DNA from: an uncultured SAR86 cluster bacterium
Lineage (GTDB): Bacteria > Pseudomonadota > Gammaproteobacteria > Magnimaribacterales > D2472
Assembly (NCBI GenBank): GCA_902627055.1
Contig: CACOHS010000002.1
Location: 4,380-68,379 of the forward strand
Direction of reading: 5' to 3'
Length of the DNA: 64,000 nt
The notes beneath the pieces are model-generated. The model was given only the letters and a program-made list of their open reading frames with translations. It was not told the origin of the DNA and did not search any database. The translations under genes were made by a program, and so were the position numbers. Positions 27,284 to 56,658 of this stretch are shown one piece after another (position 1 is the stretch's first letter; each line of letters begins with the position of its first letter).

Positions 27284-27303
27284 TGTTTTAACATGCTAAA
27301 ACA
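27284..27303. promoter_or_regulatory. candidate operator: 20-bp near-palindrome upstream of the yerC-like/his operon
   Basis: TGTTTTA-ACATGC-TAAAACA has 7-bp perfect arms and ends 15 nt upstream of the ATG at 27318. Confidence 0.3.
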
Positions 27304-27317
27304 TATAGAATCTACTC

Positions 27318-27575
27318 ATGAAATTATCAACAGCATTAAAAAAGTTAAATTCTGATAAAGATATAGAAAATTTCTTGAAAGATTTATGTACGCCTGCAGA
27401 AATCGAAGCCATGCAAGAAAGATGGGAAGTCGCTCAGCTTTTATATAAGGGTAATTCAACTTATAGAGATATTGCATCAAAACTTAATACCTCCACTGCC
27501 ACAGTTACCAGAGTTGCTAGATTTTTATTTAAAGAATCTAACAAAGGATATTTGAATCTACTAAAGAAGGATTAA
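27318..27575 (+). CDS. TrpR-like YerC/YecD family DNA-binding protein
   Basis: 85 aa with LCTPAEIEAMQERWEVAQLL and the helix-turn-helix YRDIASKLNTSTATVTRVARFL. Its stop lies 3 nt before the hisG start. Confidence 0.8.
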   Translation: MKLSTALKKLNSDKDIENFLKDLCTPAEIEAMQERWEVAQLLYKGNSTYRDIASKLNTSTATVTRVARFLFKESNKGYLNLLKKD

Positions 27576-27578
27576 TCA

Positions 27579-28445
27579 ATGACAAAAAAAATTACCATTG
27601 CAATTCAGCGAAAAGGCAGGCTATTTGATAGCAGTAAGAATTTATTAATTAAATCTGGAATAAATTTTTCTACTAGCGGCGATAAATTATTGGCTCGATC
27701 CTCAAATATGAATATAGATATATTATTAGTAAGGGATGACGACATACCCTCTCTAGTATCTAAAGGAGTAGCTGATCTAGGGATTGTTGGTCAGAATGTA
27801 TTGGCTGAGCAAGTCGCTTCAAACAAAAAAATTACAGCTAAATCAGTTTTAAATCTAGGGTTTTCTAAATGCAGACTAGCGTTTGCTAAACCAATGAATT
27901 CTAGAATCAGATCATTAAAGAATAAAATCATTGCTACCTCTTATCCTGGTTTAGTAAAGAAATTCTTGAAGGCTAAAAATATTAATGCTGAAGTAATTAA
28001 AATTAATGGTTCTGTTGAACTTACTCCATATATAGGAATTGCTGATTGCATTTGCGACCTTGTTTCATCTGGGGCAACACTTGAAGCAAATAATTTAATT
28101 GAATTTAAAACTCTAATGGATTCAGAAGCAGTTCTTATCGCATCTAGCTCGTACAAAAAGATTAAAGATAAAAGTATTCTTGATTTAATTAAAAGATTTG
28201 AGGGTGTAATTAATGCTGCAGAAAGCAAATATGTAATGCTAAATGCGGAAACAAAATCAATCGATAAAATATGTAAATTACTTCCAGGCGCAGACTCACC
28301 AACTATTATTCCATTACAACAGCAAGATAAGGTTGCAATTCATGCACTTTGTAGTGAGCCTGTTTTTTGGGAGACGATGGAAAAACTCAAATCTAATGGC
28401 GCATCTTCAATCTTAGTTATGCCTGTCGAAAAAATTCTCAATTAA
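27579..28445 (+). CDS. hisG: ATP phosphoribosyltransferase, long form
   Basis: 288 aa. It has the LTIAIQRKGRL-type N-terminus, DLVSSGATLEAN, and the C-terminal regulatory domain. Confidence 0.93.
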   Translation: MTKKITIAIQRKGRLFDSSKNLLIKSGINFSTSGDKLLARSSNMNIDILLVRDDDIPSLVSKGVADLGIVGQNVLAEQVASNKKITAKSVLNLGFSKCRLAFAKPMNSRIRSLKNKIIATSYPGLVKKFLKAKNINAEVIKINGSVELTPYIGIADCICDLVSSGATLEANNLIEFKTLMDSEAVLIASSSYKKIKDKSILDLIKRFEGVINAAESKYVMLNAETKSIDKICKLLPGADSPTIIPLQQQDKVAIHALCSEPVFWETMEKLKSNGASSILVMPVEKILN

Positions 28446-30317
28446 ATGAAGCTAATTAATCGATCAAAATCTAATTCTTCCATTAACTGGCAATCAAGTG
28501 TTAATGATATACAGTACGTTGAAAATATAGTTCTGAGATATAAAGAATTAGTTTTAAAAAATGGAACTAAAGCCTTTAATTATATAAATGAAGAATTAAA
28601 TCTTCCTAAAGTTTCATCATTTAAAGTGCGAACATCGGAAATTAATAGTGCCGAGAATTCAATTTCAGATGATTTAAAACAAGCAATATTAAATTCTGCC
28701 AACAACATCAAAATAATTTGTGAAAATGAAAAAAAGAGTTTAGTTTCATCTTCCATAGAAACTACTAAAGGAATATCCATTTGGAAAGAATTTAGGCCAA
28801 TTGAATCTGTCGGAATTTATGTTCCAGGAGGAACAGCTCCATTAATTTCATCATTCTTAATGCAACTAATTCCAGCTTCCATTGCTGGGTGTAAAAATAT
28901 AATAGTTTGCACTCCCCCTTCTTCATCAGGATCGATAGCTCCAGAAATATTATGGATAGCAAAAATATTTGGCATTTCGAATATTTACAAGGTTGGTGGT
29001 TCTCAGGCTATATTTGCGATGGCATATGGAACAACAGTTATTCCAAAAGTAGATAAGATATTTGGGCCAGGAAATGCCTATGTAAACGCAGCAAAAAAAA
29101 TCTGTTCTGATGATGTGGCTATTGATTTACCTGCTGGGCCAAGTGAGGTCATGGTTGTATCAAATGATATTTCCAAGGTTAATCTAATAGCAGCTGACGT
29201 TCTGTCTCAACTTGAACATGATTCAGCAGCTAGGGCTTTTGTTCTTTCAAAAAATTTACCTTTATTAAATGGTTTAAAAAAAGAAGTTAAAAAGCAACTT
29301 GCCTCTCTCTCTAGGCAAAATATTCTTAAAGAAAGTTTATCCAACTTAAAGCTTATTAAATATAAGTCATTCAATGACTGTATAAATTTAATAAATGAAT
29401 GTGCTCCTGAACATTTAATTTTGTTGGATGATGATTATGCTCATCTATTAGCAAAAATTAATAATGCTGGATCTATTTTTTGCGGCTCCTTGAGCCCTGA
29501 ATCTTTTGGTGATTATTCTTCTGGAACAAATCACGTTCTACCAACCAATGGTATGGCAAAAGTTTTTTCTGGTTTAGGTATTAGAGACTTTGGTAAACAG
29601 ATAAGTGTTCAAACTGCTTCATCTGAAGGATTTTTAAATATTAAAGATACCGTAATTTCTATGGCAAATGCTGAAAATCTTGATGCCCATGCAAAAGCTG
29701 TAAAAATTCGCGAGAATCTTGCAAACGAAAAATCTCGTTCAAGAATATCTACAGAAATAAGAAAAACAAATGAGACATCTATCTACATAAATCTAAATTT
29801 AGATGGGACAGGAAAATATAATATTAATACGGGTATTGATTATCTCGATCATTTACTAGAGCAATTTTCTAAACATGGCTCTATAGATTTGAATATTACT
29901 TGTCTTGGAGATTTAGAAATAGATGAACATCATTCAATTGAAGACGTTGCTATTACTTTAGGATCAGCAATAAATAAAGCTCTTCAAGATAGAAATGGAA
30001 TTTCTAGATATGCATCCAATGAAACTCTGGTTATGGATGAAGTGAAATGTAATGTCAGTATTGATTTATGCACCAGAAGATTTCTTAAGTTTAAGTGCTC
30101 TGAATTAAGGGAGATGGTTGGAGATTTTCCAACCGAAATGTTTGAACATTTTTTTGTCTCACTTATAAATGCTGCTGCCTTTACATGTCACATTGAAACT
30201 GATGGCAAAAACTCTCATCACCTGCTTGAAGCAACATTCAAAACATTTGCTAGATGTCTCAGATCTGCAATTGTTGTTGAGTCAAATGAGATTGTATCAA
30301 CTAAAGGCTTAATGTGA
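28446..30317 (+). CDS. hisD-hisB: fusion protein: histidinol dehydrogenase (about aa 1-430) joined to imidazoleglycerol-phosphate dehydratase (about aa 431-623)
   Basis: HisD blocks: YVPGGTAPL, SQLEHDS, APEHLIL, GDYSSGTNHVLPT and AHAKAVKIR. These are followed, with no stop or real linker, by IGPD blocks: IRKTNETSIYINLNLDG, IDEHHSIEDVAITLG and GKNSHHLLEATFKTFARCL. Confidence 0.9.
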   Translation: MKLINRSKSNSSINWQSSVNDIQYVENIVLRYKELVLKNGTKAFNYINEELNLPKVSSFKVRTSEINSAENSISDDLKQAILNSANNIKIICENEKKSLVSSSIETTKGISIWKEFRPIESVGIYVPGGTAPLISSFLMQLIPASIAGCKNIIVCTPPSSSGSIAPEILWIAKIFGISNIYKVGGSQAIFAMAYGTTVIPKVDKIFGPGNAYVNAAKKICSDDVAIDLPAGPSEVMVVSNDISKVNLIAADVLSQLEHDSAARAFVLSKNLPLLNGLKKEVKKQLASLSRQNILKESLSNLKLIKYKSFNDCINLINECAPEHLILLDDDYAHLLAKINNAGSIFCGSLSPESFGDYSSGTNHVLPTNGMAKVFSGLGIRDFGKQISVQTASSEGFLNIKDTVISMANAENLDAHAKAVKIRENLANEKSRSRISTEIRKTNETSIYINLNLDGTGKYNINTGIDYLDHLLEQFSKHGSIDLNITCLGDLEIDEHHSIEDVAITLGSAINKALQDRNGISRYASNETLVMDEVKCNVSIDLCTRRFLKFKCSELREMVGDFPTEMFEHFFVSLINAAAFTCHIETDGKNSHHLLEATFKTFARCLRSAIVVESNEIVSTKGLM

Positions 30318-30895
30318 CTGTTGCAATTATCGATAGTGGAGGTTCGAATCTCCGCTCTGTAGCCAAAGCAATTGATAGATTGAATAAATCGTATGTAATT
30401 ACTGATATTGCGGATGAAATAATGAAAGCTTCATTTGTAATTCTTCCAGGTGTTGGATCTGCCAGAAATGTTATGAGTGAACTCAAAAAAAAGAATCTCG
30501 TTGATGTTATAAATAATTTAAAGCAACCAGTATTAGGTATATGTATCGGAATGCAGATTTTATTTGAATATTCTGCAGAAGGTAATACAAAGTGTTTAGG
30601 ATTGATTGAAGGAGACATTCAAAAATTTGATGAATCAACAGATTTAAAAGTTCCTCAAATGGGATGGAATAAAGTGACGTTTTCAGATCAAAAACTAAAA
30701 AAATTTAATAACTATTATTACTTTGCAAATAGTTACTATTCCGACATCCAAAAACATACAACTGCAACATCAGAGTATGGAAATATATTTACTTCAGTTG
30801 TAGAAAAAAATAATTTCTTAGGGTGTCAATTTCATCCTGAAAAATCATCAGACGCTGGTGAATATTTTTTGCAATATTTTTTTCAAAAATCATGA
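30314..30895 (+). CDS. hisH: imidazole glycerol phosphate synthase, glutaminase subunit
   Basis: GTG start with a GTGA overlap. VAIIDSGGSNLRSV, GICIGMQ (catalytic Cys) and QFHPEKS. Confidence 0.93.
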   Translation: MTVAIIDSGGSNLRSVAKAIDRLNKSYVITDIADEIMKASFVILPGVGSARNVMSELKKKNLVDVINNLKQPVLGICIGMQILFEYSAEGNTKCLGLIEGDIQKFDESTDLKVPQMGWNKVTFSDQKLKKFNNYYYFANSYYSDIQKHTTATSEYGNIFTSVVEKNNFLGCQFHPEKSSDAGEYFLQYFFQKS

Positions 30896-31611
30896 AGATT
30901 TTTCCAGCAATTGATTTAAAGAACGGATCTTGTGTGCGTCTACTAAAGGGAGATTTCAATAGTCTGACTGAGTACAATAAAGATCCGATTGATCAAGCAA
31001 AAATTTTCTTAAAAAATAATTTTGATTATCTTCATGTGATTGATCTTGATGGAGCTCAAACAGGCAATCAGTCAAATATTTCTGTCATCAAAGAATTAGT
31101 AAAAATTCCTAATCTTAAGATACAAGTAGGAGGTGGTATAAGAACAATCGATGATGCTCTAAAAATAATAGATATGGGAGTCTCAAGAATCATCATCGGA
31201 ACATCAATATTTGCAAAAGGTTTTTTAACGGAAATTAAAAAGAAATTTAATCCGGAACAAATTATTTTAGCAATAGATTTCATGGAGACTGAGGGAATTC
31301 CATATATTTATACTCATGGATGGCAAGATAATAGCCATATCAATCTATTTGACTTTATGTCTGATAATTCTCACTTTAAAAACTTTCTTGCTACTGATAT
31401 TTCTCTTGACGGAGTTATGCAGGGCCCAAGCTTCAAAACATATGAGAAAATTTTAGCAAAGAATCCTTCAATTAATTTAATTGCATCTGGTGGTATCACT
31501 TCAATTAATGATTTATCTGAATTAAAACGCATCAAAATAAAGGAATCTATAGTTGGTAAAGCAATCTATGAAAAACAAATATCTTTGTCTGAGTTAAATA
31601 ATGATTACTAG
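30892..31611 (+). CDS. hisA: ProFAR isomerase
   Basis: MKIFPAIDLKNGSCVRLLKGDF with a (beta/alpha)8 HisA pattern. Confidence 0.93.
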   Translation: MKIFPAIDLKNGSCVRLLKGDFNSLTEYNKDPIDQAKIFLKNNFDYLHVIDLDGAQTGNQSNISVIKELVKIPNLKIQVGGGIRTIDDALKIIDMGVSRIIIGTSIFAKGFLTEIKKKFNPEQIILAIDFMETEGIPYIYTHGWQDNSHINLFDFMSDNSHFKNFLATDISLDGVMQGPSFKTYEKILAKNPSINLIASGGITSINDLSELKRIKIKESIVGKAIYEKQISLSELNNDY

Positions 31612-32368
31612 AAGAATAATACCTTGCTTAGATGTTAGAGATGGCAAGGTCGTTAAAGGAGTTCAATTCAAAAATCATAAAATCGTTGGGTCTATAGTTG
31701 ATTTAGCAGAAAAATACTCTACAGAGGGTGCAGACGAGCTAGTATTTTATGATATTAGTGCGAGCACAGTTGGAGCAACAGTTAAGAAAGAATGGGTTGC
31801 TAAAATTGCTGATGTTATAAATATTCCTTTTTGTGTAGCTGGAGGAATTAAATCAATCGATGATGCAAGATCAATTCTCAATTTAGGTGCAGACAAAATA
31901 TCAATTAATACCCCTGCCCTAGAAAATTCGAAATTGATAAATCAACTTAGCAAGGAATTTGGATCCCAGTGTGTTGTTATAGGTATGGACATAAAAACTG
32001 TTAATAATAATGACTATCTTTTTGCTAAGACTGGCAACGAAACTACCATGCATTCAACAGGCATTAATGCAATGGAATGGATTAAGGAAGTTCAAGATCT
32101 TGGCGCTGGAGAGGTTGTAATAAATTCAATGAATAAAGACGGTATGAGGAATGGATATGACATTAAGCTACTTAAAAAACTTAGCAGTGTTTGTAATTTA
32201 CCAATGATTGCATCAGGAGGCGCTGGTTGCAAAGAAGATTTTATTAATGTGTTTAAGGAAACAAATGTAGATGGTGCATTAGCAGCAAGTATATTTCATA
32301 GTGGTAAATATTCAATTTCTCAAATCAAATCTTCTTTAGTAGAAAAAAAAATTAATATAAGGATCTAA
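31601..32368 (+). CDS. hisF: imidazole glycerol phosphate synthase, cyclase subunit
   Basis: RIIPCLDVRDGKVVKGVQF and ASGGAG blocks. Confidence 0.95.
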   Translation: MITRRIIPCLDVRDGKVVKGVQFKNHKIVGSIVDLAEKYSTEGADELVFYDISASTVGATVKKEWVAKIADVINIPFCVAGGIKSIDDARSILNLGADKISINTPALENSKLINQLSKEFGSQCVVIGMDIKTVNNNDYLFAKTGNETTMHSTGINAMEWIKEVQDLGAGEVVINSMNKDGMRNGYDIKLLKKLSSVCNLPMIASGGAGCKEDFINVFKETNVDGALAASIFHSGKYSISQIKSSLVEKKINIRI

Positions 32369-32370
32369 AT

Positions 32371-32961
32371 ATGATTAAACTCGACTGGAAAAAGGTAAAC
32401 GGTCTGATCCCTGCGATTATCCAAGACCATCAATCGCTTCAGGTTTTAATGCTTGGATATATGAATGAAGAAGCGTTAAAAATTAGTCAATCCACAGGAT
32501 TCGCAACATTTTTTAGTAGAACAAGGCAATGCATTTGGACAAAAGGAGAAACCTCTGGGAACAAATTAGCAATTAAGAAAATTGTTCATGACTGTGACAA
32601 TGATACGCTCTTAATTCTTGCCGAAAATAAAGGACCAACATGCCATCTCGGAAGAAATTCATGTTTTCTTGATGCTCCCTCGTCGATAAATGTAATCAAA
32701 AATCTTGAGCAAACCATAGATCATCGAATTGAAGAAGCTGACATGTCATCTTACACATATCAGCTGTTTAAGGATGGAATTAAAGAAATAGCAAAAAAAG
32801 TTACCGAAGAAGCAGGTGAAGTATCAATTGCTGCTGTTACTAAAGATGGAAGAGTTATCAGCGAATCTGCTGATTTAATGTATCACTTATTAGTCATGCT
32901 GAGAGCTCAGAACCTCAACTATAGTGATGTGCTTGACGAGCTTGAGCTGAGATCTAAATAA
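32371..32961 (+). CDS. hisI: bifunctional phosphoribosyl-AMP cyclohydrolase / phosphoribosyl-ATP pyrophosphatase
   Basis: HisI block LIPAIIQDHQSLQVLMLGYMNEEAL...CH, followed by a HisE-type C-terminal helical domain (DLMYHLLVML). Confidence 0.93.
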   Translation: MIKLDWKKVNGLIPAIIQDHQSLQVLMLGYMNEEALKISQSTGFATFFSRTRQCIWTKGETSGNKLAIKKIVHDCDNDTLLILAENKGPTCHLGRNSCFLDAPSSINVIKNLEQTIDHRIEEADMSSYTYQLFKDGIKEIAKKVTEEAGEVSIAAVTKDGRVISESADLMYHLLVMLRAQNLNYSDVLDELELRSK

Positions 32962-55588: not shown

Positions 55589-55906
55589 TTAAGAAGTTGC
55601 CTCTTTAATAATTGATTCTAGCTCACCTGCTTCATGCATCTCAGTTACAATATCACAGCCTCCAATTAGCTCCCCTTTTACATATAGCTGAGGGAACGTT
55701 GGCCACTCTGAGATAGTTGGAAGTGTTTGTCGAATATCTTGGTTCTCTAATATATCAACATATGAAAATTCAGCTCCGCAATCAATCAATGCTTGAACAG
55801 TTTTTGCTGAGAAGCCACATTTTGGTTCATAGGGCGAACCCTTCATATAAATTAAAATTGCATTATCTTCAATCTGTTCTTTAATTTTATCTTCAATAGA
55901 CATCAA
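55589..55906 (-). CDS. grxD: monothiol glutaredoxin (Grx4 family)
   Basis: CGFS active site (PKCGFS) and WPTFPQLYVKGELIGG. Confidence 0.95.
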   Translation of the reverse strand: MMSIEDKIKEQIEDNAILIYMKGSPYEPKCGFSAKTVQALIDCGAEFSYVDILENQDIRQTLPTISEWPTFPQLYVKGELIGGCDIVTEMHEAGELESIIKEATS

Positions 55907-56658
55907 CTATTCCTTATCACTTTAATATATTTCATTATGGTATCGCTAAATCCAAATTTCAATGCATCAGTCATAATCGCATGCCCAATGGATACCTCAT
56001 CGATAATTCCACATTCTTTTAAATGAGGTAAATTCTCTAGATTGAGATCATGGCCTGCATTTACTCCAACACCAAACTCCTTAGCTTTTGCAATGCATTC
56101 AATAATACTTTTTTTTGTTTGATTGAATAGATTAAGATTTTTTGTTTCTAAGAAATGAGCAAAAGGCCCTGTATAAATCTCAACTCTGTCAAAACCTAAT
56201 TGTGCAGCATAATCAACTGATTTAGGATCAGAATCTATAAATAAGCTAGTCCTAGAATTTTGCTTTTTAATTTCTTCAAGAAATTTAACTAATTCATCAT
56301 CTAGGTGCCCTGGCTGCCATCCATGGTCTGATGTAACTTGATCAAGAGTGTCGGGAACAAGAGTAATTTGATTTGGACGAGTAATATTGCAAAGCTCTTT
56401 AAAGCCAAGAAAGTCATTCTCAGGAAGAGAAAATGGATTACCTTCTAAGTTAAATTCAAGATTATTATCTTTACAGATTTTTGAGATTTCTTTTGCATCA
56501 TTAGATGTTGCATGCCGATGATCAGGCCTTGGATGAAGTGTTAAGCCATCAACGCCAAGTTTAATAGCCAACTTAGCGTAATCTTGTAATGATGGACTAT
56601 CATTTCCACGAGAGTTTCTGAGGAGAGCAATCTTATTTAAATTAACGCTAAGTTTCAT
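55903..56658 (-). CDS. pdxJ: pyridoxine 5'-phosphate synthase
   Basis: LSVNLNKIALLRNSRG, HPRPDHRH and GHAIM blocks. Confidence 0.9.
   Translation of the reverse strand: MKLSVNLNKIALLRNSRGNDSPSLQDYAKLAIKLGVDGLTLHPRPDHRHATSNDAKEISKICKDNNLEFNLEGNPFSLPENDFLGFKELCNITRPNQITLVPDTLDQVTSDHGWQPGHLDDELVKFLEEIKKQNSRTSLFIDSDPKSVDYAAQLGFDRVEIYTGPFAHFLETKNLNLFNQTKKSIIECIAKAKEFGVGVNAGHDLNLENLPHLKECGIIDEVSIGHAIMTDALKFGFSDTIMKYIKVIRNS

Follow-up and report, generated by a model that had tools for sequence, protein, structure and literature searches.

The textbook fusions of histidine biosynthesis (his) genes are hisNB, hisIE, HIS4 and HIS7. Histidinol dehydrogenase (HisD) is a domain-swapped dimer, and imidazoleglycerol-phosphate dehydratase (IGPD) is a 24-mer. 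In the surface ocean, SAR86 ranks with the most abundant clades of bacteria. Fungal HIS4 (HisI-HisE-HisD) and the multi-domain His protein of Acanthamoeba join HisD to enzymes whose pathway steps do not follow one another (PMC1963479, PMC6029752). The compact his operon of the Bacteroidota and E. coli groups has been reported to move as a unit (PMC1963479). SAR86B and SAR86D have been stated to carry genes for histidine synthesis (Dupont et al. 2012, PMC3358033), the his operon being present in some SAR86 genomes and not in others (PMC3358033). Palindromes of 20 bp of the HisR/TrpR type have also been described (PMC9413887).

Here, a his operon is described from an uncultured SAR86 bacterium, within a stretch of 64 kb (the window, i.e., the whole of this stretch), in which hisD and the dehydratase domain of hisB form one gene (hisD::Bd). 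Our reading, to which we give a probability of roughly 0.8, is that the product is a functional bifunctional enzyme of SAR86, which arose from a HisR-controlled operon by loss of hisC and of a HAD phosphatase domain, and that the missing steps are encoded elsewhere.

The fused gene and its operon

The open-reading-frame listing gives a single ORF at 28446-30317 (+ strand), from ATG to stop, encoding 623 amino acids, with the coordinates that a preliminary description of this DNA had claimed. The two domains expected from that description are both present and full-length: PF00815 (Histidinol_dh) at aa 20-422 (profile positions 6-410 of 411, 465 bits) and PF00475 (IGPD) at aa 462-605 (positions 1-144 of 144, 174 bits). 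There is no other Pfam domain in the ORF. Both halves are full-length members of their families and score above the curated NCBIfam cut-offs: TIGR00069 (hisD) gives 449.9 bits on the fused ORF against a cut-off of 243.8, and the model for monofunctional HisB, NF002111, gives 233.6 bits against 231 over aa 432-622. Judged by the family membership of its halves, the 623-aa protein is predicted to be a bifunctional enzyme, of which the C-terminal 193 residues would be a complete Mn-dependent imidazoleglycerol-phosphate dehydratase.

Table 1. Features of the SAR86 his operon (window positions)
Feature	Position	Strand	Description	Evidence
Candidate HisR operator	27284..27303	+	20-bp palindrome TGTTTTA-ACATGC-TAAAACA, 15-34 nt upstream of hisR start codon	Read from sequence
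hisR	27318..27575	+	TrpR-family (YerC/HisR-like) repressor, first gene of operon, 85 aa	PF01371, TIGR02531
hisG	27579..28445	+	Long-form ATP phosphoribosyltransferase with HisG_C regulatory domain	PF01634 plus PF08029
hisD::Bd, HisD half	28446..29735	+	aa 1-430, histidinol dehydrogenase, pathway steps 9 and 10	PF00815, TIGR00069
hisD::Bd, junction	29715..29753	+	aa 424-436 (NLANEKSRSRIST), HisD C-terminal tail straight into first IGPD residues	Junction alignment
hisD::Bd, IGPD half	29736..30317	+	aa 431-623 plus stop, imidazoleglycerol-phosphate dehydratase, pathway step 6	PF00475 full length
hisH	30314..30895	+	GTG start overlapping stop codon of fused gene (GTGA)	TIGR01855, 193.7 bits
hisA	30892..31611	+	4-nt overlap with hisH	PF00977, 215.6 bits
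hisF	31601..32368	+	11-nt overlap with hisA	PF00977, 249.6 bits
hisIE	32371..32961	+	Fused gene	NF002747 bifunctional HisIE, 254 bits (cut-off 187)

The HisD half is 44% identical to HisD of Elizabethkingia (6AN0) and 40% identical to that of E. coli (1K75/1KAE). Residues Q255, H258, E322, H323, D356, H363 and H415 align with Q259, H262, E326, H327, D360, H367 and H419 of the E. coli enzyme, respectively; across 15 fusion proteins, E322, H323, D356 and H415 are invariant, and Q255 and H258 nearly so. The Zn ligands (E. coli Q259, H262, D360 and H419) and the catalytic Glu and His (E326 and H327) are retained. In the IGPD half (43-44% identity to plant IGPD), H469, H495, H496, E499, H582, H591, H592 and E595 align with plant IGPD2, and all of these are invariant across the fusions except H582, which is nearly so; the two Mn-binding motifs (DxHHxxE and HHxxE) and two single His are likewise in place. 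The dN/dS ratio is 0.08-0.13 for the HisD half and 0.01-0.16 for the IGPD half, and about 1.1-1.2 for the junction against distant relatives (14 codons only). By these ratios, both halves are under strong purifying selection, and the junction evolves freely.

In alignments to solved structures, E. coli HisD (which ends at residue 434) runs out at about aa 430 of the fused ORF, and the first ordered residues of plant IGPD correspond to about aa 431, in agreement with the near-absence of a linker noted in the preliminary description. Among SAR86 clades, the sequence of the junction is variable and its length differs by about three residues. In an AF2 model of the fusion (mean pLDDT 81), the junction is a helix (423-429) followed by a strand (434-440), with pLDDT 81-85, and the IGPD half superposes on solved IGPD (2F1D/4MU0) at 1.2 Å, with a TM score of 0.92-0.95. 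Confidence in the monomer model is low at aa 360-376, a loop which we read as lying in the HisD dimer contact region. An in-frame ATG is lacking near the junction, and so, between aa 427 and aa 448, are methionine, valine and leucine, the residues that an ATG, GTG or TTG start could give. Because a separate start codon is absent there, IGPD can be obtained only within the fusion.

The operon (hisR-hisG-hisD::Bd-hisH-hisA-hisF-hisIE) is tightly packed, the TAA stop of hisG directly adjoining the ATG of the fused gene. This is the enterobacterial/Xanthomonas-type order without hisC and hisN; the preliminary description had named the enterobacterial one. The first gene scores 79.4 bits with PF01371 (Trp_repressor) and 52.2 bits with TIGR02531 (yecD_yerC; cut-off 42.2), and has the features of a putative HisR: fewer than 100 amino acids, a PF01371 domain, first position in a his operon, and an upstream palindrome as candidate operator. 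It is kept upstream of hisG in every SAR86 locus that reaches that far, and also in loci L058, L069 and L082 (see below). The candidate operator resembles the published 20-bp palindromes of the HisR/TrpR type (PMC9413887), and every SAR86 locus has a palindrome there, with position and spacing relative to hisR unchanged. In distant SAR86 clades, it reads TGTATTA-n6-TAATACA in place of the TGTTTTA-n6-TAAAACA of the window's clade; thus, both arms of the palindrome have changed together. The upstream regions were compared directly, in place of a search with the published proteobacterial HisR consensus (TGTAnTArnnnnyTnTTACA). That consensus had no match in the promoter at up to 2 mismatches, and its matches in the window were at chance level only. 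Related systems are the HisR-controlled his operons of other Gammaproteobacteria (Xanthomonadales, Legionella, Francisella); the palindrome of the window differs from the proteobacterial consensus.

The operon lacks hisC and the HAD phosphatase domain by both tblastn and Pfam, as the preliminary description had it. No hisC was found in the whole 64-kb window (tblastn, and Pfam scans of 20 further ORFs of suitable size), the HisN domain had no tblastn match in the window, and neither the window nor the flanks of 18 SAR86 loci (up to 8 kb on each side) yielded hisC or a phosphatase of the HAD, IMPase or PHP type. The tblastn queries were HisC and HisN of Chryseobacterium, the HisC and the IMPase-type phosphatase of locus L088, and the PHP-type phosphatase of locus L084. 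The HisC and phosphatase steps would be supplied by genes elsewhere in the genome. As these genes were not found in the window and the 18-locus flanks, the completeness of the pathway in SAR86 rests on the published statement (PMC3358033). The replacement phosphatase is probably of another family, as in other lineages that lost the HAD domain: there is a PHP phosphatase in the operon of L084 and an IMPase-family phosphatase at L088.

Distribution of HisD-IGPD fusions

At least 120 protein clusters from independent assemblies (ENA, JGI, NCBI, Tara and Logan), mostly of 623 aa, contain both domains; an NCBI contig of 182 kb encodes the identical fusion protein, which also belongs to a cluster of 136 members. 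All 18 SAR86-type GTDB loci recovered (54-97% identity; including the complete genome CP097973.1, single-cell genomes and SAR86B) have hisG-hisD::Bd-H-A-F-IE, with hisR ahead wherever the locus extends far enough. Neighbour-joining trees with 200 bootstraps recover SAR86 as monophyletic, at a support of 100 (HisD half) and 81-86 (IGPD half). For those SAR86 lineages in which a his operon is present, the fused gene is ancestral. One sequence considered as an unfused sister of SAR86 (P0128) was rejected: it has a frame change on a 1.9-kb contig and no start codon for a second gene.

Fusions of HisD with IGPD were found in at least six lineages besides SAR86, in two operon types. Examples are Rhodocaloribacter WP_457652919.1, the Bacillota MAG protein MBE3575607.1, and loci L019, L082, L084 and L085. 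These share with the SAR86 protein the two-domain architecture and the position in a his operon, but are only about 40% identical to it, have different linkers and a GC content of 48-67%, and sit in two operon backgrounds: one with long hisG, the other with hisZ plus short hisG. They are probably of independent origin, a view that rests mainly on operon type, GC content and linkers, because the deep nodes of both domain trees have bootstraps below 60. Other fusions at the C-terminus of HisD were also found: HisD-HisC, HisD-HisC-IGPD and HisD-IMPase.

Where the sources name HisD-IGPD proteins, they name them solely "histidinol dehydrogenase". Therefore, automated reconstruction can miss step 6 and wrongly call auxotrophy. 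This naming, and the absence of hisC and hisN from the operon, bear on the histidine auxotrophy that has been reported for part of the SAR86 population. One cluster also includes a "HisB" of 210 aa that was called as a gene of its own.

Origin of the fused gene

The ancestor would have been a HisR-controlled operon of the form hisR-hisG-D-C-(N)B-H-A-F-IE, from which about 1.6 kb, comprising hisC and the HAD phosphatase domain of hisNB, may have been lost. The end of hisD would have been joined in frame to the dehydratase domain, at an N-terminal attachment point that already tolerated HisN. Two proteobacterial MAGs (L058 and L069) have just such an operon (hisR-hisG-D-C-NB-H-A-F-IE), with hisD-hisC-hisNB where SAR86 has the fused gene, and the SAR86 junction corresponds, on alignment, to the tail of HisD followed by the opening residues of the dehydratase half of HisNB. 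The junction alignment contains no remnant of hisC or hisN. Of the NCBIfam models, the one for bifunctional HisNB matches aa 419-623 best (at model positions 156-355), and the nearest relatives of the IGPD half by tblastn are HisNB proteins (45-53% identity; 35-44% for solved monofunctional IGPDs). Among solved HisD structures, that of a Bacteroidota species is nearest, and that of E. coli next; both groups have the compact his operon. The preliminary description had envisaged a deletion that welded hisD to hisBd; the gene order of L058 and L069 and the junction alignment speak for such a deletion, but not for its having been one single event.

The loss could have been stepwise, i.e., hisC could have left the D-C-NB block first, and a later in-frame deletion could have removed the hisN domain together with the hisD stop codon. 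Two Gracilibacteria loci (L021 and L022) have hisNB directly after hisD; in L021 the two genes share a frame, only a stop codon and about 20 nt separating them, and in L022 hisC lies upstream, after hisR. Since hisD already directly precedes hisNB in Gracilibacteria, this route is as possible as a single deletion, and present sequences cannot separate the two, because the final product is identical. The IGPD of Gracilibacteria is also the closest relative outside SAR86 (53% identity) and its sister in the IGPD tree. However, that sister relationship is weakly supported (60% bootstrap), and the intermediate arrangement is absent from every SAR86 genome recovered; we entertain the stepwise order tentatively.

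A single origin of the fused gene, or of the whole operon, in another lineage, followed by horizontal transfer to SAR86 and others, is unlikely. It would account for the same operon layout, hisR included, in an unrelated organism of 60% GC (L082), and for the order hisG-D::Bd-hisH in Rhodocaloribacter (L081) and in a "Bacteroidetes" MAG (L019), with more his genes where the contig continues. Whole-unit transfer of compact his operons is known (PMC1963479), and not all SAR86 genomes have the his operon (PMC3358033). However, the fusions do not form one clade in either domain tree: L082 groups with the unfused L058 and L069, L019 and L081 with HisNB of Bacteroidota, and SAR86 with Gracilibacteria, all with weak support in trees built without a monofunctional gammaproteobacterial IGPD as outgroup. 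Linkers vary in length and sequence from lineage to lineage, identity between the fusions of different lineages is only about 40%, and the SAR86 operon has the GC content of its flanks (0.32).

Even less probable is plain loss of the hisD stop codon beside a monofunctional hisB, in an operon of the Bacillus type (hisZ-G-D-B-H-A-F), with no deletion of hisC or hisN. This evidently gave rise to other fusions, namely those of L085 (hisZ, short hisG, D::Bd, H, A, F) and L086 (short hisG, D::Bd, H). In SAR86, however, long-form HisG with HisG_C, fused hisIE, hisR and no hisZ mark the operon as of the gammaproteobacterial/Bacteroidota type, unfused examples of which carry hisC-hisNB between hisD and hisH, and the IGPD half has its top score with the HisNB model.

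That two genes were merged by an artefact of assembly, frameshift or gene calling is effectively refuted: one 1.9-kb metagenome contig (L080/P0128) has a frame change about 10 codons before the IGPD start, but a frame-by-frame check of 13 SAR86 genome loci found the ORF uninterrupted in all 13, with none of the stops or frameshifts that the preliminary description had named as grounds for doubt; MAGs, single-cell genomes and a complete genome have it uninterrupted, as do assemblies of five or more sources; a separate IGPD gene would have no start codon; and the frame is kept at 54-97% identity, with dS up to saturation.

Loss of hisC and the HAD domain from a HisR-controlled operon, in one step or several, would make this gene a clean example of a fusion partner being exchanged at the same attachment point, via loss of intervening DNA, in a streamlined genome. 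This outcome appears to have been reached more than once.

Assembly of the protein and comparison with known systems

Substrate channelling by the fusion is impossible, because the two reactions are not consecutive. It would instead fix a 1:1 stoichiometry of HisD and IGPD and save DNA. Given the abundance of SAR86, the fused protein may rank among the commoner forms of HisD and IGPD in the surface ocean. The cryo-EM entries 7OJ5 and 6EZM of IGPD have 24 chains each, and it is not obvious that the dimer and the 24-mer can form together with a linker of near-zero length. A domain-swapped dimer tethered in this way to a 24-mer poses a testable symmetry problem. Speculatively, the repeated, independent joining of HisD to IGPD, to HisC, to both, or to a phosphatase could reflect a physical complex of the late pathway, which would exist also where the genes are separate. 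In SAR86, this might be a particle of about 1.6 MDa, made of 24 chains of 69 kDa, with an IGPD 24-mer as core and twelve HisD dimers on the two-fold axes, possibly docking HisC and the phosphatase. We consider this doubtful; if true, steps 6-10 would have a natural scaffold in a single SAR86 protein.

Among the described proteins close to the fusion is HisNB (HisB of E. coli and Salmonella), which has the same C-terminal IGPD domain with a second enzyme of the histidine pathway N-terminal to it, and is encoded in the same type of operon (long hisG, fused hisIE, order G-D-...-B-H-A-F-IE). The SAR86 junction coincides with the HisN-IGPD boundary of HisNB. However, the N-terminal partner in HisNB is a HAD phosphatase of about 165 aa, whereas in SAR86 it is the 430-aa HisD, so that HisNB joins steps 8 and 6, and the SAR86 fusion steps 9/10 and 6. 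The SAR86 ORF has no HAD (DDDD) domain and is not a bifunctional HisNB: model NF003937 scores 241 bits against a cut-off of 443, and matches at positions 156-355 only.

HIS4 and the Acanthamoeba protein are similar to the SAR86 protein in that HisD is joined to enzymes of non-consecutive steps. They are, however, eukaryotic proteins with HisD at or near the C-terminus, whereas the SAR86 protein is bacterial with HisD at the N-terminus; and their partners are early-pathway enzymes (HisI/E; in Acanthamoeba also HisH/F, HisA and HisG) with no IGPD among them, whereas the partner in SAR86 is IGPD. Nor is the SAR86 protein of the HIS4 type, i.e., with HisI and HisE on the HisD polypeptide: Pfam places PRA-CH and PRA-PH in the separate hisIE gene (Table 1), outside the fused ORF. 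No mention of a HisD-IGPD fusion was found in reviews of the histidine pathway or by full-text literature search. The preliminary description had allowed that the architecture might prove common and already described; it is not rare, as all SAR86 loci recovered have it and it recurs in other phyla, but no paper describing it was found. Thus, the bacterial HisD-IGPD fusion extends the textbook list of his-gene fusions, as a novel arrangement of well-known parts and not a new kind of system.

The fused gene and its operon

A complete histidinol dehydrogenase (HisD) and a complete imidazoleglycerol-phosphate dehydratase (IGPD) are encoded in hisD::Bd by a single ORF of 623 aa running from ATG to stop, and Pfam and NCBIfam agree on this, as the preliminary description had proposed. 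Histidinol_dh covers aa 20–422 (profile 6–410 of 411, 465 bits) and IGPD aa 462–605 (profile 1–144 of 144, 174 bits); the hisD model TIGR00069 scores 449.9 bits (cut-off 243.8), and the monofunctional HisB model NF002111 scores 233.6 bits over aa 432–622 (cut-off 231). No NCBIfam model spans both halves. The halves were said to have essentially no linker, which is literally correct: E. coli HisD ends (residue 434) opposite about aa 430, and the ordered part of Arabidopsis IGPD2 starts opposite about aa 431. Judging from these residue-level alignments, the natural C-terminal tail of HisD leads directly into the first IGPD strand. As there is no in-frame ATG, GTG or TTG near the junction, IGPD would be made only as part of the fusion protein. 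Among SAR86 clades, the junction differs in sequence, and in length by about three residues (junction alignment).

The zinc ligands of E. coli HisD (Q259, H262, D360, H419) correspond to Q255, H258, D356 and H415 of the fusion, and the catalytic pair (E326, H327) to E322 and H323; the IGPD motifs align at H469, H495-H496-E499, H582 and H591-H592-E595. Nearly all catalytic and metal-binding residues of both halves are invariant in 15 fusion proteins sharing 33–86% identity. Against five SAR86 relatives, dN/dS (Nei–Gojobori) is 0.08–0.13 for the HisD part and 0.01–0.16 for the IGPD part; at the junction it rises to about 1.1–1.2 against distant relatives, in a small sample of 14 codons. At the level of sequence, two intact, conserved catalytic domains are present on one polypeptide. 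From their families, the HisD half would oxidise histidinol to histidine (steps 9/10) and the IGPD half would dehydrate IGP to imidazole-acetol phosphate (step 6).

In an AlphaFold2 model built on an alignment of fusion proteins (mean pLDDT 81.4), a short helix (423–429) is followed at once by the first IGPD strand (434–440), with pLDDT 81–85 at the junction. In Foldseek, the N-terminal half matched solved HisD and the C-terminal half solved IGPD (TM 0.92–0.95, rmsd 1.2 Å); no solved chain covered both. HisD is a domain-swapped dimer according to the title of 1K75, and IGPD is a 24-mer (24 chains each in 7OJ5 and 6EZM). With almost no linker between them, the fusion would either carry twelve HisD dimers on the two-fold axes of the IGPD core, about 1.6 MDa for the complete particle, or have to depart from one of these two arrangements. 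A dimer tethered to a 24-mer is a neat structural question.

The his operon is very compact, and within this predicted operon hisD::Bd would be co-transcribed with the other his genes. Its ATG lies directly after the hisG stop, its own stop is overlapped by the GTG start of hisH, and GC is about 0.32 in the operon as in the flanks. As first described, the operon lacks hisC and the HAD phosphatase domain. HisC and phosphatases of the HAD-HisN, IMPase and PHP types, used as tblastn queries, gave no match in the whole 64-kb window, and Pfam detected no aminotransferase or phosphatase in 20 further window ORFs of suitable size.

Features of the window and of loci from other contigs
Feature	Sequence	Position	Strand	Remark
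Candidate HisR box	window	27284–27303		20-bp palindrome
hisR	window	27318–27575	+	TrpR/YerC-like, 85 aa
hisG	window	27579–28445	+	long form, with HisG_C
hisD::Bd	window	28446–30317	+	fused gene
hisH	window	30314–30895	+	
hisA	window	30892–31611	+	
hisF	window	31601–32368	+	
hisIE	window	32371–32961	+	fused
pdxJ	window	55903–56658	-	full length, 221 bits
hisNB directly after hisD	L021	1–2403		Gracilibacteria
hisNB directly after hisD	L022	3253–7711		Gracilibacteria
Pair of small genes	L084	2994–3603		opposite strand, between hisD::Bd and hisH
PHP-family phosphatase gene	L084	5811–6668		between hisF and hisIE
Divergent HisD-IGPD fusion	L087	217–2172		P0250; 13 contigs
HisD-HisC-IGPD fusion	L088	331–3336		1001 aa
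IMPase-family gene	L088	6046–6885		operon end, after hisIE
HisD-HisC-HAD-IGPD protein	L089	6001–10206		1401 aa

The hisR product belongs to the known HisR family, which in Proteobacteria is often encoded at the head of the his operon (PMC9413887). The palindrome TGTTTTA-ACATGC-TAAAACA lies 15–34 nt before the hisR start and also upstream of hisR in the SAR86-type loci L001–L017; in more distant SAR86 clades, TGTATTA-n6-TAATACA occupies this position. The two arms have thus changed in concert, as the operator of a dimeric repressor should. The palindrome is probably the HisR box, which would imply self-regulation of hisR. Elsewhere in the window PdxJ is encoded, although the vitamin B6 pathway has been reported absent from SAR86A, C and D (Dupont et al. 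2012, PMC3358033).

Occurrence throughout SAR86

A homologue search covering 5.8 billion proteins returned at least 120 clusters with 71–94% identity to the fusion; every one listed has both domains and, except for two (622 and 588 aa), is 623 aa long. They derive from ENA, JGI, NCBI, Tara and Logan assemblies. An identical protein is encoded on a 182-kb NCBI contig (cluster of 136 members). A scan of GTDB species representatives placed the window in the SAR86 cluster, with 97% identity to the single-cell genomes AG-325-E16 and AG-457-D18, and 18 SAR86-type loci were recovered, down to 54% identity, including the complete genome CP097973.1, SAR86B and SCGC AAA168-P09. The order hisG-hisD::Bd-hisH-A-F-IE is found in all 18, as far as contigs extend, hisR precedes hisG in every locus reaching that far, and neither hisC nor hisN lies within the flanks (up to 8 kb). 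Thirteen SAR86 loci read frame by frame hold both domains in one uninterrupted ORF of 616–639 codons (measured stop to stop), with no stop or frameshift at the junction. An artefact of assembly or gene calling is ruled out by the uninterrupted fusion across independent assemblies and the 18 loci; on sequence evidence, hisD::Bd is a real, clade-wide bifunctional gene of SAR86.

The only discordant sequence, P0128 on a 1.9-kb metagenome contig (L080), changes frame at about 1800–1910, some 10 codons ahead of where IGPD begins, offers no initiation codon from which IGPD could be made separately, and lacks the conserved AH..AV motif of HisD. It is taken here to be a sequencing error, or a pseudogene or decaying copy. 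In another protein (P0127, 472 aa), about 95 N-terminal residues without a HisD match, possibly resembling the start of aconitase B, precede the C-terminal half of HisD and IGPD; its IGPD part is sister to SAR86 (bootstrap 86), and a chimeric contig or a rearrangement is the probable explanation.

Origin of the SAR86 fusion

Two high-GC proteobacterial MAGs (L058, L069) carry hisR-hisG-hisD-hisC-hisNB-hisH-A-F-IE, an operon like that of SAR86 which has kept hisC and the phosphatase domain, and Bacteroidota loci have the same order without hisR. At the SAR86 junction, the left side (AHAKAVKIRENLANEKSR) aligns with the C-terminal tail of unfused HisD and the right side (SRISTEIRKTNETS) with the beginning of the IGPD half in HisNB ('...RxAxVxRKTxET'); the junction alignment reveals no remnant of hisC or hisN between them. 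The best NCBIfam model for the IGPD half is bifunctional HisNB, matched at positions 156–355 only, and its nearest tblastn relatives are HisNB proteins (45–53% identity, vs 35–44% for monofunctional solved IGPDs). The nearest solved HisD is that of Elizabethkingia (Bacteroidota, 44%), followed by E. coli (40%), with Pseudomonas at 31–34%. These affinities fit the published view in which the compact G-D-C-(NB)-H-A-F-(IE) operon is of gammaproteobacterial origin and moved as a unit to Bacteroidota (PMC1963479).

Thus, gene order, junction and the affinities of the halves support well the outcome of the deletion that had been proposed (hisC and hisN lost, hisD joined to hisBd), which may have come about in one event or in several. 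About 1.6 kb would have been lost from a hisR-hisG-D-C-NB-type operon, with HisD taking the place of HisN at the same N-terminal attachment point of IGPD. Having functioned with HisN at its N-terminus, this IGPD would have been able to accept the new partner. The fusion can be read as a side effect of DNA loss in a streamlined genome, one that was tolerated and may have brought a mild advantage. It would fix equal stoichiometry of HisD and IGPD; as steps 9/10 and 6 are not consecutive, the benefit would not be channelling.

The route could also have been stepwise, hisD first coming to lie next to hisNB, in an intermediate like that of Gracilibacteria, and fusion following later. In one Gracilibacteria locus (L021) the two genes are in the same frame, parted by a stop codon and about 20 nt only, and in the other (L022) hisC lies upstream, after a hisR-like gene. 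In the IGPD tree, Gracilibacteria are sister to SAR86, with weak support (bootstrap 60).

Other HisD fusions and known his-gene fusions

A HMMER scan covered 1.84 billion cluster representatives (50% identity), the best 150 of which were labelled by domain: HisD alone in 102 (including four matches split in two), HisD-HisC in 27, HisD-IGPD in 10, HIS4-like (HisIE-HisD) in eight, HisD-HisC-IGPD in two and HisG-HisD in one. The labelling had no IMPase query, and P0134 (HisD plus an IMPase-family domain) was counted as HisD alone. The HisD-HisC fusions (about 780–820 aa; P0130, P0135, P0138 and others) are frequent among these 150.

HisD-IGPD occurs in Rhodocaloribacter (WP_457652919.1; hisG-D::Bd-H-...-IE), a 'Bacteroidetes' MAG (L019), a 60%-GC organism (L082; hisR-G-D::Bd-H-A-F-IE) and L084, with a PHP phosphatase inside the operon. 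It is also found in Firmicutes-type operons, whose native order already places hisD next to hisB: L085, with hisZ and short hisG, and L086 (Bacillota MAG MBE3575607.1), with short hisG. GC in the non-SAR86 fusion loci is 0.48–0.67 vs 0.31–0.33 in SAR86, linkers differ between lineages in length and sequence, and the fusions are not one clade in either the HisD or the IGPD tree, in which deep nodes are poorly supported. It is concluded that HisD-IGPD arose at least twice, once in each operon type, and probably more often.

One of the small genes in L084 encodes an MqsA-like antitoxin. The triple fusion of L088 is followed by hisH-A-F-IE, and there an IMPase-type enzyme appears to have taken over from the HAD phosphatase domain. 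Thus, where the HAD domain has been lost, in L088 (IMPase) and L084 (PHP), a phosphatase of another family stands in for it, which suggests the kind of gene to seek in SAR86. The protein of L089 unites steps 9/10, 7, 8 and 6 in one chain; neighbours with RRM and USP9X-type ARM domains suggest that this contig is eukaryotic. The fusion of L087, with an IGPD half of only 105 bits, stands without other his genes beside genes for Fe-ADH, AcnX, an arginase-family protein and urocanase, and may have a role outside histidine synthesis.

Specialised reviews list hisNB, hisIE, hisHF/HIS7 and HIS4 (PMC1963479, PMC7284861, PMC8305728, PMC10138114), and an Acanthamoeba paper adds a multi-domain His protein (PMC6029752); none of these five mentions a hisD-hisB(d) or hisD-hisC fusion. 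A 2021 survey of 91 Bacteroidota and related genomes reported no special HisD structures, and a full-text literature search with plausible fusion names and with SAR86 plus histidinol gave nothing relevant. Dupont et al. (2012, PMC3358033) recorded the his operon in SAR86B and SAR86D and its absence from SAR86A, passing over the gene structure without comment. Wherever sources name the full-length fusion proteins, they are just 'histidinol dehydrogenase'. Recognising the fusion puts right the annotation and pathway calls of a marine clade that is abundant, and histidine synthesis, a model for gene fusion, gains a clear example in which a deletion exchanged one fusion partner for another. The architecture, absent from these reviews of his fusions, is not unique to SAR86: HisD-IGPD joins two well-known his enzymes in a combination that is uncatalogued and has more than one origin, rather than being a new kind of system.
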